64,000 bases of DNA from Candidatus Omnitrophota bacterium. Lineage in GTDB: Bacteria; Omnitrophota; Gorgyraeia; B26-G9. The stretch is taken from positions 1,280 to 65,279 of the forward strand of contig JAHITE010000123.1 in the NCBI GenBank assembly GCA_018817585.1. Reading direction: 5' to 3'. Shown piece by piece: positions 10,316 to 54,082 of this stretch (position 1 is its first letter; each line of letters starts with the position of its first letter). A program made the translations under genes and the position numbers. Below the pieces are notes generated by a model that saw only the letters and a list, made by a program, of their open reading frames with translations, had not been told where the DNA came from and made no database searches.

Positions 10316-11058
10316 GACTGCTCTCCTTTCATAATTTTAAAATTATAAGTTGAAATAAAAAAGTGATAATCAGAATTTAATATTATAGTAATATGATTAA
10401 ATAATAATATCGTAAAATTTTTAGCCATCTAACAAACTCCCTCCTTTCCCTTTTATTTTTATAGACAAAATAATAGCCAAACTGCTTAATTTTCGTCAGC
10501 CCGGCTGTCATAGCTTATAGTCGCGTTGTCGGTGCGCTCGGCGATCATTGCTTCAGCTTTAGACCCGTAGCTTTGCCCCAGCTTTACTAGCCAGGTCCCG
10601 CCGCATTTTGGCGGGAGTCCCCATCTTTCAATGAGTTTGCCTTTTCGGATTACTCCAAAAAACTAAACTTATGAAAAGTCTTTAATTGTAGACATAATAA
10701 TTAATATTTATAAAAGACTAATCATTTAGCATCTCAGAGCTTAATTTGCGGATACAAATAGACTTAGATTTAGAGGACTGTTTTTTTCGAGGATAATAAA
10801 TTCGTATTTGGATAAAAATAGGGTTACAAGTATAAATATTTTATTTTGTTCCCTCTACGAAACAATCCAGTCCCTCTTGACCATTGCCATACACAAATTG
10901 GCGCTCTTTTACTTCTAATTAAATATACCATGAATTCAAAACTTTTGCAAATTTAATAAAATTTATTAAAACTACTATTATTAGTACATTACTAATTATA
11001 ATTAAAAACTGTTTTAATAACTTTTTAAGCATTATTTTAGTTTAAAAAACACTGACAA

Positions 11059-24932: not shown

Positions 24933-25204
24933 AACAACCTCCTTTCCCTTTAATTTATATGTACATTTTAAAAGTGCTTAATAATATAACAATATAAATC
25001 TTATAACAAAAGTATACCATATGGAATTATTATGTGCAAGTCGTAAGACAGCGCTTAGCGGAAAGCGTTTAGTGAATAGATAATAATTATTAGTTATGAG
25101 TTATAAATTACGAATTGAAATAGTTTTTAGCTCTTAAATTGCGGATTAAAACATCTAATTTATCTTTTGCTTTAGCGCTATCCTCTAATCGCTATACTCT
25201 GCCC

Positions 25205-34338: not shown

Positions 34339-34506
34339 TACCGCCTCCTTATTGGTTGTTTCGCGTTTACGCGTTCTGTTTTTCACTTTATAACTTTACA
34401 AACTTTCTACTATGTACTTCTGCCTTGAAGTTAGTATCATAATACATTTTGAAATATTTTTCAATTATTTATTGTCAATAAAAAAACCCTATGTTAACAT
34501 ATTAAT

Positions 34507-35552: not shown

Positions 35553-36392
35553 ATGAAAACTATCACAATCACAAAAAGCGCGGGATTTTGCTTTGGAGTT
35601 CGCCGGGCATTACAATTAGCCGAGCAAACAGCCAGCGCTAATAAAAAAGTCTACATGCTCGGAGAAATTGTCCACAATCCCCGGGTTGTCAATGACATTA
35701 AAAAAACCGGGGTTATTAAAATTAATGAACTGCGCCCGCAGCACAACGGTATTCTTCTAATCCGGGCGCATGGAGCGCCAAGGGAAACTTATAAAAAAGC
35801 GGAAAAGCTGGGATATACAATCATTGATGCTACCTGCCCGATGGTAAAAGAAATCCATTCCATTGCCCGGGAATACGAACAGAAAAAGTTCAAGATTATT
35901 ATTATTGGCGATAAAAAACACGATGAAGTTATCGGAATTAAAGGTAATTTAGAAACCGAACCAATCATTATTGCCAAAAAAAAGGAAATCACGCCAAAAG
36001 CATTTTACCGGGTTAGCAAAGCAGCCGTGGTTGTTCAATCAACCCAGAATATTGACAAAGTATTAGATATTGTGGAGAAGCTGGAAAAACACATTAAAAA
36101 AGTAGTATTCTGCAATACTATTTGTCTGCCCACCCGCTTAAAACAGCAAGAAATTCAGGAGCTTCCGGCAACACAGGATATGATGATTATTATTGGCGCA
36201 AAAAGCAGCGCGAATACCAAACGTTTGTATGAATTATCCAAAAAAATAAATCCTAATACTTATTGGGTAAATTCAAAAACTGATATTCGAAAAAGCTGGT
36301 TTAAAAACAAACAAAAAATCGGAATTGGCGCCGGCGCCTCAACTCCCGAATACATTATTAAAGAAATTGCTTCTTATATCCGCTCAATTTGA
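35553..36392 (+). CDS. ispH: 4-hydroxy-3-methylbut-2-enyl diphosphate reductase
   Basis: GFCFGVRRAL N-terminal Cys motif, VHNPRV, LytB fold; about 280 aa. Confidence 0.9.
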   Translation: MKTITITKSAGFCFGVRRALQLAEQTASANKKVYMLGEIVHNPRVVNDIKKTGVIKINELRPQHNGILLIRAHGAPRETYKKAEKLGYTIIDATCPMVKEIHSIAREYEQKKFKIIIIGDKKHDEVIGIKGNLETEPIIIAKKKEITPKAFYRVSKAAVVVQSTQNIDKVLDIVEKLEKHIKKVVFCNTICLPTRLKQQEIQELPATQDMMIIIGAKSSANTKRLYELSKKINPNTYWVNSKTDIRKSWFKNKQKIGIGAGASTPEYIIKEIASYIRSI

Positions 36393-36398
36393 ATAATA

Positions 36399-36799
36399 AT
36401 ATCACAAGGTCACAATGACACCAGGTCACAAGAGATAAGTTATTAGTTGTTTGACTTGGCAAAAACACATCTTTTCGCTAAGCCTGAGTCTGCATCGTGC
36501 AGGCCCAGCCGCGCGTTCTCACTATTTTGACATCCCTGTCAAAATTACGCTCGAAAGCGCCGCTCAAAGAGAATTTTTGCCAATGCGTCCTTCGTCCTAG
36601 CGTAGCGATCGTCTTTCATCATTCGGTCTTCCGCAATACGCGATACTCACGACGCAATACAGAAACATAGGTTTAATTTTTTTTAGAGTTTATATTTTTG
36701 GATTTATTTAGGATTTAGAGTTTAGAGTTTTTTAAAAAAAGTGTCAACTATTTTATGTAGCTTTTAACTTGTGTCCTTGTGACTTGTGTCTTTGTGACC
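36399..36799. mobile_element. MITE-like non-autonomous element: about 32-bp imperfect terminal inverted repeats (GTCACAAG-rich) flanking a GC-richer non-coding core
   Basis: Left end ATCACAAGGTCACAATGACACCAGGTCACAAG (36399-36430). Right end CTTGTGTCCTTGTGACTTGTGTCTTTGTGACC (36768-36799), whose reverse complement is GGTCACAAAGACACAAGTCACAAGGACACAAG. The element sits between the ispH stop (36392) and the HIT stop (36800); no ORF inside. Confidence 0.5.
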
Positions 36800-37219
36800 T
36801 TATACAAGGATGCCTCTGATTTTTTCAGTAATCGCCGCGACTTCGGATTCAGGATAGGCTTCTTTTTGCTGATTGCCCCAAACAACATTCGGCCAGCAAT
36901 AATCAGTGGGATTGCGCCCGACAATATGGATATGCATTTGACTGACAATATTCCCAATTGCCGCCACATTCAGTTTGCTTACTTGCGGATAAGCTGATTT
37001 AACAAAATTCGATATTAGATTTATTTCATTTAAAAGTACGGTTTGCTGATTTTGATTTAACTCACAGAGCTCTTTGCTATCAGTTTGCGGAACCAGAATA
37101 AACCAAGGCACAAGCTGATTATTCATCAATAATAAGACGCTCAAATCCAGTTTTCCCAAAACAAAACAGTCAGCAGCCAACCTCGGGTCTAAAATAAAAT
37201 TATTTAGCTTTAAATCCAT
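36800..37219 (-). CDS. HIT-family (histidine triad) nucleotide hydrolase
   Basis: Histidine triad SQMHIHIVGR; about 139 aa. Confidence 0.75.
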   Translation of the reverse strand: MDLKLNNFILDPRLAADCFVLGKLDLSVLLLMNNQLVPWFILVPQTDSKELCELNQNQQTVLLNEINLISNFVKSAYPQVSKLNVAAIGNIVSQMHIHIVGRNPTDYCWPNVVWGNQQKEAYPESEVAAITEKIRGILV

Positions 37220-37233
37220 ATTCTCCGCGCTTT

Positions 37234-37476
37234 CTAAATAATAACTTTGAATTTTTTATTTTCAAATTCAATAATATCGCCGGTAACAATTTTTTTGGCT
37301 TTACGGGTTTCTATCTGATTATTAACCTTAACATGCCCCTGCGATATTTCCAATTTAGCATGACCGCCGCTTTGCACCAAATCATGCAGTTTAAGGATCT
37401 TACATAATTCACAAGGCTGATGCGCTAATTTGATGGTTTTATATTCTTCCATATTCCCTCTTTGATTTTCAATCAT
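37234..37476 (-). CDS. S4-domain RNA-binding protein (YaaA-like)
   Basis: Matches B. subtilis YaaA: LHDLVQSGGHAKLEISQGHVKVNNQIETRKAKKIVTGDIIEF; 80 aa. Confidence 0.7.
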   Translation of the reverse strand: MIENQRGNMEEYKTIKLAHQPCELCKILKLHDLVQSGGHAKLEISQGHVKVNNQIETRKAKKIVTGDIIEFENKKFKVII

Positions 37477-37487
37477 TTATATCTTTT

Positions 37488-37518
37488 AAAAAAAAGGGAA
37501 GCGTTAAAGCGTCCCTTT
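37488..37518 (-). terminator. rho-independent terminator downstream of the 1115-aa gene
   Basis: On the minus strand, hairpin GGGACGCTTTAACGCTTCCC followed by TTTTTTTT. Confidence 0.6.
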
Positions 37519-37551
37519 AAAAACAATAAATCAAATTAATTCTGATTAATT

Positions 37552-40899: not shown

Positions 40900-41051
40900 C
40901 CTGTTTTAAATTTTCAGTTTTCAGTCCCGGAAAGTATTTTTTTACCATGAAAATGATTTTTGTAAAGCCAATTAAGAACTTAAGCTACCAGATATTAAGC
41001 GGATGCCCAGACTATTAAACTGGATATAAAGCAGGTTTATTATACTTTTAG

Positions 41052-53434: not shown

Positions 53435-54082
53435 TTATTCCGGAATCTTGATCATTTGTCCAGGATATATTTTGTTAGGATTTTTTAGAGAATCTTGATT
53501 AAAATCATAAATCTTTTTCCATTTTGTACTTGTTCCGTAAACATTTTTGGAAACTTTTTGTAAGGTATCACCTGGTTTTATTTTGTACATAGAAAAAGAA
53601 GTTTGAGTTTGAGCTTGAGTTTGAGCTTGAGTTTGAGCTTGAGCTGGCTTTGGCAGAACAACTTCCTGCTCAATTGCTTCTTCAGTTACCGTATAGCTTT
53701 TTTCATCTGGTAAAACTATTTCTTCGACAGCAGTTTCTTCTGTTGATTTGGACTGCCGCTGATTCATACTCGCTGGTCCGCCATAAATATAACCTCTATT
53801 GCCCCAGATTTCTTTGTCCGGGGTTGACTCAGACTGTCTAAAGTTTTTCCACTCCGGATATGGCGGAACCTCCATGGTAACTTGATAAACTTTTCTGGTA
53901 GTAACCCGCTGTTTTGCCTGATCTTCAGGAGGAATTGAACCAGAAATAAACCCTTTATTTCCGCTAATATCCTGATCTACTCTCGGCTCGTCTACTGTAA
54001 CCATAGAAAATCGCTTAACACAACCGCTTATATTTAAACTCAGCACTGATAAAATTATAATCAACGGCAACATTTTTTTCAT
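53435..54082 (-). CDS. LysM-domain lipoprotein with (QAQT)n low-complexity linker
   Basis: Lipobox LNISGC; C-terminal LysM YKIKPGDTLQKVSKNVYG...IYPGQMIKIP; AQAQTQAQTQAQTQ repeat. Confidence 0.7.
   Translation of the reverse strand: MKKMLPLIIILSVLSLNISGCVKRFSMVTVDEPRVDQDISGNKGFISGSIPPEDQAKQRVTTRKVYQVTMEVPPYPEWKNFRQSESTPDKEIWGNRGYIYGGPASMNQRQSKSTEETAVEEIVLPDEKSYTVTEEAIEQEVVLPKPAQAQTQAQTQAQTQTSFSMYKIKPGDTLQKVSKNVYGTSTKWKKIYDFNQDSLKNPNKIYPGQMIKIPE
53601..53646. repeat. tandem hexanucleotide repeat (TTGAGY)n, about 7 units, encoding the QAQT linker
   Basis: tttgagtttgagcttgagtttgagcttgagtttgagcttgagctgg, read directly from the sequence. Confidence 0.8.

Follow-up and report, generated by a model that had tools for sequence, protein, structure and literature searches.

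Inverted octamer arrays between the convergent ispH and HIT genes of an Omnitrophota bacterium: a probable decayed member of a dispersed repeat family

In the 64,000-nucleotide stretch of DNA analysed here (the window), ispH, encoding 4-hydroxy-3-methylbut-2-enyl diphosphate reductase (PF02401; 35553-36392, plus strand, stop codon at 36390-36392), and a HIT-family gene (PF01230; 36800-37219, minus strand, stop codon at 36800-36802) are convergent and separated by a spacer of about 400 bp (407 bp). The encoded IspH protein is 100% identical to P0001, named Candidatus Omnitrophica. What kind of DNA fills this spacer, and how did it come to lie there? A preliminary description, based on the letters of the sequence, proposed a MITE-like element with inverted-repeat ends between the two stop codons or, alternatively, a structured non-coding RNA flanked by protein-binding repeats. 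The element with inverted ends is real: the spacer is bounded by two inverted arrays, each of four octamers with the consensus GWCACAAG, and the 335 bp between them are ORF-less, as had been noted, the largest frame being 57 aa long and without a Pfam match.

The two octamer arms and their predicted folding

The left arm is made of four tandem octamers, ATCACAAG GTCACAAT GACACCAG GTCACAAG (36401-36432), the last of which names the arrays. It does adjoin the ispH stop codon as the preliminary description had it, starting 8 nt after the stop and not 7. The right arm, CTTGTGTC CTTGTGAC TTGTGTC TTTGTGAC C (36768-36799), abuts the HIT stop codon exactly as described and is the reverse complement of GGTCACAAA GACACAA GTCACAAG GACACAAG. 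The ends were also rightly called imperfect reverse complements built from iterated half-sites: the arrays are complementary over 37 nt at 73%, and their 14-nt cores at 93%. The flanks ATAATAAT and TTATACAA prolong the inverted repeat and do not form a direct repeat, and no target-site duplication is visible at the window copy. A two-unit pattern, allowing up to 3 mismatches, has 5 matches in the 64-kb window, all within the two arrays, against a shuffle expectation of 0.21 (none of 100 shuffles reached 5), and TRF reports a period of 8 at both arrays.

Minimum-energy folding predicts that on either strand the arms can pair into a closing stem of about 35 bp, the whole element reaching -127 kcal/mol (z -7.4) on the plus strand and -120 kcal/mol (z -5.6) on the minus strand, while for the interior by itself the gain over shuffles is weak (z -2.3 and -2.5). 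The predicted pairing between the two arms of one element (-31.1 kcal/mol) is only slightly stronger than pairing with the arms of other elements (-29.7 kcal/mol; permutation p 0.02), so that any selection on the stem would be weak, a result that also fits recognition of the units by a protein. The idea that the arms are a co-evolving RNA helix was rejected on this small difference and on a strand asymmetry that is not clear (p 0.07). We also discarded a replication origin or terminus, since judged by their sequence the arrays are not DnaA boxes.

A dispersed arm family associated with the S23p gene

The preliminary description had suggested a search for further copies of the terminal repeats, and such copies exist. 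Expressed as a 20-base pattern, the arm occurs at 33 loci in species-representative genomes and at 28 loci (contigs) in metagenomes; the chance expectation of about 2 matches applies to the genome collection (596 billion bases), the metagenome collection being far larger. Groundwater samples such as JGI 3300014656 and 3300027822 are among the sources of such contigs. At least seven Omnitrophota MAGs have copies, as do two Planctomycetota MAGs, and one MAG, JACQXZ01, carries 23 compact copies on 17 contigs, near-identical to each other over about 150 bp. The unit and layout of the left arm recur in these members, and an arm-spacer-arm arrangement is repeated with spacers of either 5-93 nt or 256-435 nt. 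Left-type arrays are also present in two related loci, L004 (1678-1702) and L071 (1510-1537). Variant units that do not pair mutually (GACAC, TTGCAAC) occur as well, and the sequence of the unit is conserved across phyla. The arms thus belong to a dispersed, multi-copy inverted-repeat family shared between genomes; no arm match was found in the viral collection, and literature searches on the octamer, on Omnitrophota repeats and on mobility of four-helix-bundle genes returned no description of the family.

Members of the family mostly adjoin a gene start, with 24 of 35 compact copies lying within 100 nt of one, whereas the window copy sits between two gene ends. In the JACQXZ subfamily, 13 copies are oriented towards the downstream gene versus 3 that are not; the corresponding numbers in other genomes are 7 and 6, and a general bias of orientation was therefore rejected.

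The longer spacers (366-435 nt) contain a gene of about 117 aa encoding a four-helix-bundle protein (PF05635, S23p, "23S rRNA intervening-sequence protein"), which is flanked by arms in L034, L046, L062 and L066. Two other spacers hold remnants of it, a truncated gene in L055 (tblastn 3.7e-7) and, recognised by eye only, a remnant in L060, where tatatcctttttccat is the reverse complement of the ATGGAAAAAGG start. The association is also seen from the side of the protein: three homologues picked solely by protein similarity (L077, L078 and L080-85) all have arms on both sides, and the first of these belongs to the MAG that has the 23 compact copies. Over-long homologues that open with translated arrays (for example GHKVTS or SHKVTRT) amount to at least 13 of 18. 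In other lineages of the gene the arms are built from different 7-8-mers (L034, 5924-6298; L078, 108-563; and the viral contig L075). The viral collection holds only two four-helix-bundle loci, and one of them, L075, is the contig whose tandem arrays, also inverted, are made of a different unit. These observations associate the arms with the four-helix-bundle gene.

The searches turned up no transposase gene bounded by such ends, and the only cargo gene seen, PF05635, is not a known transposase. A single Y1_Tnp ORF (IS200-like, E 1e-10) adjoins a compact copy in L034, with no other in L001-L069; this observation is anecdotal, and a link to RAYT was rejected on account of its single occurrence.

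The interior and the same junction in relatives

Between the arms, the spacer is a succession of small modules. A linker, AGATAAGTTATTAGTTGTTTGAC (36433-36455, plus strand), leads from the left arm to the inner module. Over its first 14 nt it is similar to the stretch that follows the arm in L071, AGACAAGTTTATAG, and a non-significant likeness to the opening codons (LVVWQK) of the four-helix-bundle gene may be taken as suggestive only. Next comes a 128-nt module (36456-36583, minus strand) with perfect 10-bp inverted ends, TTGGCAAAAA and TTTTTGCCAA, which encloses the palindrome of the preliminary description, ATTTTGACAtcccTGTCAAAAT, that is ATTTTGACA-tccc-TGTCAAAAT (36524-36545). A GC-rich segment with other short periodic units follows (36584-36662), including TAGCGTAGCGAT at 36598-36609 and a minus-strand run of heptamers, GTATTGC GTCGTGA GTATCGC GTATTGC, at 36633-36660; in relatives, similar runs of TAGCG and GTATCGC follow ispH and precede ispA. 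The module and this segment together make up the GC-richer core that had been pointed out (GC 0.50 over 36456-36662, versus 0.38 in the window). The AT-rich stretch beyond it (36663-36740; GC 0.19 over 36663-36767) has periodic units of 7-11 nt such as TTTAGAG and GGATTTA, with the expected TTTAGAG tandems located at 36714-36727 and 36682, and a comparable T-rich periodic stretch stands ahead of the second arm in L062. A sigma-70-like match, TTGACA-17-TAAACT (36719-36747, minus strand), agrees at 10 of 12 positions and points into the interior. Its TTGACA is kept in L002 and L071 and its -10 hexamer in neither, so this weakly indicated site is at most a putative promoter. The last element is a conserved box, GTGTCAACTATTTTATGTAGCTTTTAA (36741-36767, plus strand), part of which, GTGTCAAC, is common to L002 and L071. 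Its final 9 nt, AGCTTTTAA, abut the right arm, and in that position intact elements have AAAAG(C/T)TTTTAA, where the four-helix-bundle ORF ends (..K S F *) directly at the arm.

This short match raises the possibility that the interior descends from the four-helix-bundle gene. However, neither Pfam searches of all frames nor a six-frame search with the HMM of the family nor a DNA profile gave a match, and the interior as a decayed copy of the gene was rejected; the remaining resemblance consists of the 9-nt 3' match and the non-significant 5' likeness. Since the interior has no significant similarity to the gene at the protein or DNA level, any descent of the window copy from a gene-bearing element rests on the arms, their spacing and the 9-nt match. 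Six-frame peptides of the interior had no relative among 5.8 billion proteins, and blastn against the window and against related loci totalling about 283 kb (L001-L041) found no other copies of it.

We compared the ispH-HIT junction with that of related genomes. L002, with an IspH that is 98% identical, retains the right arm together with about 55 nt of the adjoining interior; the rest of its interior is wholly different, and it has no left arm. In L071 (IspH 88% identical), a left-type arm is followed by the 128-nt module in inverted orientation, and the right arm is absent. This homologue of the module (1581-1709; 89% column identity between the minus strand of the window and the plus strand of L071) came from a later look-up of the same junction, outside the L001-L041 set searched by blastn. 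The central hairpin is disrupted in it, and it is the only homologue; the first 19 nt of the module are also found after an array in L004. Of other copies of the core, which the preliminary description had proposed to look for, those of this module are the only ones found, and none of the remaining interior recurs in the window, the related loci or the protein collection.

More generally, one or both arms are missing in relatives with 85-88% IspH identity, and partial or different fillings occupy the junction in L002, L071, L074, L005 and L007. The right arm, on the other hand, is identical and in the same place beside the HIT stop codon in four independent assemblies (L002, L030, L058 and L001). 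Contig L001 terminates within the right arm. The junction is a different mosaic in each relative, and this variation between close strains is as expected of mobile DNA. The empty site and target-site duplication that the preliminary description had proposed to look for did not appear: no clean empty ispH-HIT site was found among the relatives compared and no duplication at the window copy, so that mobility at this locus is only putative. Moreover, since L002 has the right arm alone and L071 a left-type arm alone, the two arms could be independent arrivals and not the ends of one old element. A two-arm invertible switch or promoter was rejected because L002 lacks one arm.

Origin of the spacer and its relation to known elements

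The reading that we favour, with a probability of roughly 60%, is that the window copy is a decayed, gene-less member of a selfish family of octamer-arm repeats, filled with other small repeats. In intact members of the family the arms enclose the PF05635 gene of about 117 aa, the design of 23S rRNA intervening sequences, set among ordinary genes, and the compact hairpins of about 75-110 nt, as in the genome that carries 23 of them, would be derivatives without the gene. The window copy may have entered just past the ispH stop codon, in the same direction as ispH. It would have kept its arms at the spacing of gene-bearing members (335 nt versus 366-435), and the 9 nt before the right arm do resemble the end of the presumed lost ORF; the place of the lost gene would have been taken by the 128-nt unit with its 10-bp inverted ends, by other heptamer runs and by the AT-rich periodic stretch. 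Such DNA would be selfish and without a dedicated function, and the family's mode of movement is something that we infer. Transcripts reading through from ispH or HIT might fold the arms into a double-stranded stem that RNase III could cut and, as in rRNA intervening sequences, this cut would define the 3' ends of both convergent mRNAs. The setting between gene ends, where most members lie by a gene start, speaks against this reading.

Among known systems, the closest design is that of the intervening sequences (IVS) of 23S rRNA. IVS with an S23p gene are known in Coxiella burnetii, Leptospira and Xanthomonas; the Coxiella IVS is about 430 nt long, has a 28-bp terminal stem and an S23p ORF, is excised by RNase III and carries on its 5' side three to four GACAGAT heptamers whose number varies between strains (PMC4990558). 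Likeness extends to size (about 400-430 nt), to the terminal stem (28 bp in Coxiella versus a predicted 35 bp or so in the window copy) and to tandem repeats of 7-8 nt, with four octamers per arm in the window copy where Coxiella has three to four GACAGAT. It also includes the PF05635 ORF in the loop of intact members, and decay of the ORF, internal deletions and a patchy distribution that suggests horizontal spread. Unlike IVS, the arm family lies between protein-coding genes and not in helix 25 or 45 of 23S rRNA (no rRNA was found in the window), both arms of the window element are wholly tandem octamers, and the window copy has no ORF; its processing by RNase III would follow by analogy.

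Bacterial MITEs and palindromic intergenic repeats (Correia, ERIC, RUP, BOX, Nezha) are small, gene-less, multi-copy and intergenic, with inverted ends; they are modular, accept nested insertions and differ between close strains. The arm family shares with them size, multiple copies devoid of a gene, inverted ends, intergenic location, modularity with nested insertions and strain differences, but the window copy shows no target-site duplication, is not repeated as a whole and has no known cognate transposase, and the ends of the family are arrays of an 8-bp unit instead of a unique transposase site of 20-30 bp. REP/REPIN sequences with their RAYT (Y1 HUH) transposases (cf. PMC3733652) are inverted doublets that form hairpins in tens of near-identical extragenic copies. 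The likeness lies in hairpins, copy number, extragenic place and the single Y1_Tnp of L034; the arm units, however, lack a GTAG/CGTC head, each arm is an array of octamers, about 32 nt long, and not a single palindrome of 20-40 nt, and a Y1 gene was seen once.

Arrays of TAACTGA have been described in Beggiatoaceae, Cyanobacteria and Bacteroidetes (PMC4679880), and heptamers in Nostoc (10.1101/2022.06.06.494920). With these the arm family has in common 2-10 tandem units of 7-8 nt in intergenic regions, often few nt from a start codon, and a spread across phyla with no known vector; those arrays, however, are nearly always direct (169 direct sets versus one inverted), and the arm family typically forms inverted pairs tied to a specific gene family. 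Cyanobacterial STRR are further intergenic tandem heptamer arrays. Operators with a period of 7-8 bp are typical of ribbon-helix-helix repressors, as in the 8-bp met boxes of MetJ, the 7-bp heptads WATCACW of the omega protein and the ParG boxes. This likeness (period, 2-10 direct and inverted units, TCAC in the unit) should be treated as a lead only, and no such protein was identified for the arm family.

Other explanations of the locus have to be weighed against this reading. The classical MITE hypothesis, in which the whole 400 bp would be a non-autonomous transposon inserted once between the stop codons, with the arrays as ends bound by a transposase whose gene lies elsewhere, accounts for the inverted ends, the small ORF-less body, the multi-copy arms in related genomes and the break of an assembly inside an arm (L001). 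On a smaller scale the 128-nt module, with its own inverted ends and found in either orientation, is itself MITE-like. We nevertheless regard a single insertion as improbable: the interior beyond that module has no copy in the window, in the 283 kb of related loci or among the 5.8 billion proteins, the closest relative shares one arm and 55 nt of interior and differs in everything else, no target-site duplication is visible, and the gene-bearing copies encode PF05635 with no transposase found for these ends. Of the MITE interpretation, then, the multi-copy family of ends and the variation between strains stand, and insertion of the 400 bp as one unit does not. The same module is relevant to the proposal that the GC-rich core is a structured RNA gene flanked by the arrays, for which one could cite its GC content above that of the window, a predicted 10-bp helix closing a 128-nt domain with a 9-bp hairpin, and the promoter-like site on the minus strand. 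Rfam, however, gave no relevant match at E up to 10 in 35800-37400, none at the gathering threshold across the window and nothing relevant in L002, L020 and L015. The predicted fold of the interior surpasses that of shuffles by a small margin only (z about -2.4), the hairpin is broken without compensation in L071, where the module is also inverted relative to the flanking genes, and the region is missing in the 98% relative. A conserved RNA in the interior was consequently rejected, and an RNA gene appears very improbable.

The arrays may bind a protein, which formed part of the same early proposal. The octamers could be cooperative sites for a small DNA- or RNA-binding protein that regulates an interior promoter or the neighbouring genes, on the model of met boxes (MetJ) or omega heptads, or with the four-helix-bundle protein itself as the binder. 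Conservation of the unit across phyla, including the non-pairing variants, cis pairing barely above trans, the proximity of compact copies to gene starts and a TTGACA box 20 nt inside the right arm would fit such a role, and in Beggiatoaceae and Nostoc a role as regulator sites has been suggested for heptamer arrays that immediately precede start codons (PMC4679880; 10.1101/2022.06.06.494920). However, 23 copies in one genome, near-identical over about 150 bp, point to proliferation rather than to a regulon; the window copy, lying between gene ends, has no obvious target, the putative promoter lacks a conserved -10 hexamer, and no candidate regulator was identified, so that operator arrays seem unlikely, if less so than a MITE. 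A further proposal is that the stem was exapted to terminate or process the convergent transcripts and to shield ispH and HIT from antisense read-through. The spacer contains no clear intrinsic terminator for either gene (one weak site at 36786-36813), the distance from arm to stop codon is 8 nt on the ispH side and 0 nt on the HIT side, a stem of about 35 bp is predicted on either strand, and the right arm is conserved by the HIT stop codon in four independent assemblies. Relatives with 85-88% IspH identity nevertheless live without one or both arms, and 335 nt between the arms would be a poor design for a terminator; we give this proposal as little credit as the classical MITE.

More tentatively than the decayed-member reading, S23p genes with inverted arrays of 7-8-mers might make up a large class of selfish elements that has gone unrecognised, with rRNA intervening sequences as its best-known site and a unit that co-varies with the protein lineage. 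The pentameric protein would then recognise its own arrays, hence the co-variation, and MITE-like offspring could include the 23-copy hairpins, the ispH-HIT locus and perhaps the intergenic heptamer arrays of other phyla.

By itself the locus is of modest interest, because the odd 400-bp spacer would be decayed repeat DNA and neither a novel RNA gene nor a functioning transposon. For annotation, the N-terminal extensions of S23p proteins should be suspected of stemming from arrays, and many assembly breaks in Omnitrophota bins may have the same source. The family is of wider importance, as it would tie the unexplained tandem 7-8-nt intergenic arrays known from several phyla to the S23p genes that rRNA intervening sequences carry, genes whose role and mobility have been in question since the 1990s, and would place S23p-type elements outside rRNA, in thousands of copies and with gene-less derivatives. 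Through this tie two questions become testable: binding of S23p to the arrays, and the arms as RNase III sites. If the latter is true, the element would be able to sit harmlessly inside operons.

Structure of the ispH-HIT spacer

The spacer between ispH (PF02401; + strand, ending at 36392) and the HIT-family gene (PF01230; - strand, ending at 36800) is 407 bp long, and the IspH encoded here is 100% identical to a protein named as Candidatus Omnitrophota. Octamer arrays form inverted ends between the two stops, as the preliminary description had stated. The left arm (36401-36432) reads ATCACAAG GTCACAAT GACACCAG GTCACAAG and starts 8 nt past the ispH stop, not 7 nt as first counted, while the right arm (36768-36799; CTTGTGTC CTTGTGAC TTGTGTC TTTGTGAC C) is flush with the HIT stop. 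Each array is an imperfect reverse complement of the other (73% over 37 nt, 93% over cores of 14 nt). When 3 mismatches or fewer were allowed, a two-unit probe matched the 64-kb window five times, always within the two arrays; 0.21 matches were expected in shuffled sequence and none of 100 shuffles attained five. The other features observed previously were also confirmed, namely a GC-rich core (0.50 GC vs 0.38 for the window), a TTGACA...TGTCAA palindrome and TTTAGAG tandems in the interior, and the lack of any real ORF there. Elsewhere the window holds intergenic tandem arrays of TTAGTTA x5 (25069-25104) and AGTTTG x7 (53600-53643), and GTTTTCA x3.3 (40903-40925) just upstream of a 1115-aa gene; none of the three is of the GTCACAAG type.

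The interior comprises a linker, a 128-nt module (36456-36583) with perfectly inverted 10-bp ends (TTGGCAAAAA and TTTTTGCCAA), a GC-rich segment of other heptamer-like runs and a periodic stretch of 19% GC. Its minus strand carries a sigma-type match, TTGACA-17-TAAACT, whose -10 hexamer is not conserved in relatives. A structured ncRNA had been proposed as the alternative to a mobile element, and this is not borne out for the interior: folded alone, it beats shuffled sequence by only a small margin (z about -2.4 for both strands), and Rfam returned nothing relevant around the site at E up to 10, nor anything relevant to the element over the window at gathering threshold. The interior was therefore rejected as a known RNA family or a convincing RNA. 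The whole element folds far better than shuffles (z -7.4 and -5.6 for the two strands) owing to a ~35-bp stem closed by the two arms, a long stem which in the predicted fold is available on either strand. Away from the element, a c-di-GMP-I riboswitch aptamer lies at 10492-10651 on the minus strand (42.2 bits vs a gathering threshold of 35).

The same junction in relatives

At locus L002 (IspH 98% identical) the right arm and ~55 nt inside it (through GTGTCAAC) adjoin the HIT stop, and the remainder up to the ispH stop is unrelated to the window, with no left arm. At L071 (88%) ispH is followed by a three-unit left-type arm, then a 128-nt module, the GTGTCAAC box and a 230-nt long-hairpin repeat, and the junction has no right arm; the module is 89% identical to window 36456-36583, in opposite orientation relative to ispH and HIT. 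L074 (85%) has an 88-aa ORF after ispH instead, just 49 bp follow ispH in L005 (75%), and in L004 (90%) ispH has no HIT neighbour; there a left-type array, with the 128-nt module's first 19 nt behind it, sits in the ybaB-ispA spacer. The same right arm adjoins HIT in four assemblies, one short contig terminating inside it. Since the junction is a different mosaic in each relative, the 400 bp did not arrive as one unit, and the spacer is a composite of smaller modules that have separate histories. The claim of a single MITE inserted whole thus named the wrong unit of insertion, while its arms are indeed members of a repeat family; the junction is strain-variable, with partial or different fillings (L002, L071, L074, L005).

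The 128-nt module occupies the same junction in the window and in L071 (1581-1709), with the same arm on its left and the same GTGTCAAC box on its right, and its opposite orientations suggest either that it was inverted in place or that a tiny MITE-like unit inserted independently. A separate repeat of ~230 nt (L002 2920-3132 and 4010-4242; L020 6859-7131; L071 about 1770-1975; L018 1386-1436) adjoins octamer arrays in close relatives and is absent from the window. It folds as one long rod of 79 predicted pairs with ends AAGATGAT and ATCATCTT, shows compensatory changes at four pairs among three copies, and has no Rfam match. A GC-rich hairpin module (..GATCCTCCTTCGCCAAG.CTATGGAGGACAG..), also absent from the window, follows ispH in L004 (3870-3965, preceded by CGCAGATGAACGCAGATGGACGC repeats) and L002 (2785-2850).

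Neighbouring intergenic regions differ as well, even between near-identical strains (L002 3896-4630 vs window 37477-37551; the L004 and L002 ybaB-ispA spacers vs window 34339-34506), by 200-730-bp insertions of the same small-module kinds, the window having the short versions. In the species closest to the window, L020 (6699-6790, equal to L061) carries between divergent genes a long pure tandem array of GGACACAAGGTCACAAG, about five and a half 16-mers, then runs of other 7-9-mers and the 230-nt repeat.

The arm family and S23p genes

Other copies of the terminal repeats were searched for in two collections with a 20-base pattern (TCACAANGACACNAGN{0,1}TCACAAG), and the arms proved to be multi-copy, with 33 loci in species-representative genomes and 28 metagenome contigs; by our arithmetic about two matches are expected by chance, a figure for the genome collection only (596 billion bases), the metagenome collection being far larger. 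The MAG JACQXZ01, labelled Actinomycetota in its own database record (37% GC), has 23 matches on 17 contigs. These copies are near-identical across ~150 bp (arm 1 GGTCACAAA GTCACAAG GACACAA GTCACAAG; loop TGAAGAAATTTTTAAC; arm 2 CTGTGAC CTGTGAC TTGCAAC TTGTGAC), often with conserved modules on either side. No fewer than seven MAGs of Omnitrophota and two of Planctomycetota hold further matches. The layout throughout is arm, spacer and inverted arm. Compact copies have spacers of 5 to 93 nt, and for long copies the range is 256 to 435 nt; the window, with 335-343 nt between its arms, belongs to the long class. A gene starts within 100 nt of 24 of the 35 compact copies; lying between two gene ends, the window copy departs from this pattern. 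An orientation bias (13 vs 3) is seen in the JACQXZ subfamily only.

Several neighbours of the arms were also recorded. At L034 (1025-1612) an IS200-like Y1 transposase ORF (PF01797, E 1e-10), reading HDVHLVV where the HUH motif is expected, starts against a compact octamer palindrome, a single instance. In L029 a compact copy is immediately followed by a tRNA, and at L080/L084 (about 1285-1500) a tRNA gene stands between a compact octamer palindrome and a four-helix-bundle gene flanked by arms. The tandem 16-mers GGACRCCAGCYCACAA matched in L027 (about 2100-2240; Novipirellula, a high-GC Planctomycete) may be a related array or a coding repeat.

Three long copies (L034, L046, L066) have as their 366-435-nt spacer a gene whose ~117-aa product matches PF05635 (E 5e-34 to 1e-38), the family of the 23S rRNA intervening-sequence (IVS) protein, known too as S23p or the four-helix-bundle protein. 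L062 has a frameshifted copy beside a compact arm pair. L055 (tblastn 3.7e-7) and L060 (read by eye; reverse complement of the ATGGAAAAAGG start) retain its first codons only, and look like internal-deletion derivatives. As these loci had been retrieved via the arm pattern, we performed the reverse test, starting from the protein. A search with the L046 product (E <= 1e-20) gave 2682 relatives, many on contigs of about 1 kb. Three homologues taken without regard to DNA (L077, L078, L080-85) were all flanked on both sides by inverted GTCAC(A/C)(A/C)G octamer arrays. One of them, L077, belongs to the MAG with the 23 compact copies and lies inside the rnf operon, where its downstream arm passes straight into the next gene's ribosome-binding site. 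Of 18 over-long homologues, at least 13 open with translated arrays, visible as peptides like GHKVTS or SHKVTRT. Other lineages of the gene have other arm units: AACCCAATG (L034 5924-6298), CTGATAT (L078 108-563) and GGGAATTG (an unrelated viral contig, arms 405-420 nt apart).

Nature of the window copy

The window element was thus shown to belong to a repeat family that proliferates, varies between strains and is tied to S23p genes: its arms match the GWCACAAG family and its spacing that of gene-bearing copies. Just ahead of the right arm, the 9 nt AGCTTTTAA (36759-36767) correspond to AAAAG(C/T)TTTTAA, the ORF end that adjoins the downstream arm in intact copies. The lost ORF accordingly has the + strand as its sense strand, which is co-directional with ispH, as in L077. 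A search of the interior for a trace of the four-helix-bundle gene gave nothing significant.

The closest known system is the IVS of Coxiella burnetii, a 428-nt selfish element in 23S rRNA whose ends carry inverted repeats that pair into a 28-bp stem cut by RNase III, with 3-4 tandem GACAGAT heptamers, strain-variable in number, upstream of a decaying S23p ORF (PMC4990558). Size, arms, short tandem units and S23p cargo are common to both; unlike it, the GWCACAAG family sits between ordinary genes, has both arms made wholly of octamers and leaves many gene-less derivatives. Published accounts of intergenic heptamer arrays near start codons, from Beggiatoaceae, Cyanobacteria and Bacteroidetes (PMC4679880) and likewise from Nostoc, leave them unexplained; those arrays are almost all direct rather than inverted, and no link to S23p genes was made there. 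A literature search found no description of the GWCACAAG family.

Concerning function, transcripts reading in from ispH or HIT would offer the arm stem as an RNase III substrate, which would set both 3' ends. Pairing within an element is only slightly stronger than pairing between arms of different elements (-31.1 vs -29.7 kcal/mol, p 0.02), and non-pairing variant units are conserved across phyla. Both results weaken a purely RNA-structural role and leave room for recognition of the octamers by a protein.

We infer that the window element is selfish DNA in decay, and it is best described as a relic, stuffed and without an ORF, of an IVS-like S23p element. Taken by itself, the ispH-HIT locus is decayed repeat DNA of an ordinary kind; the GWCACAAG family that it exposed is worth a systematic survey.
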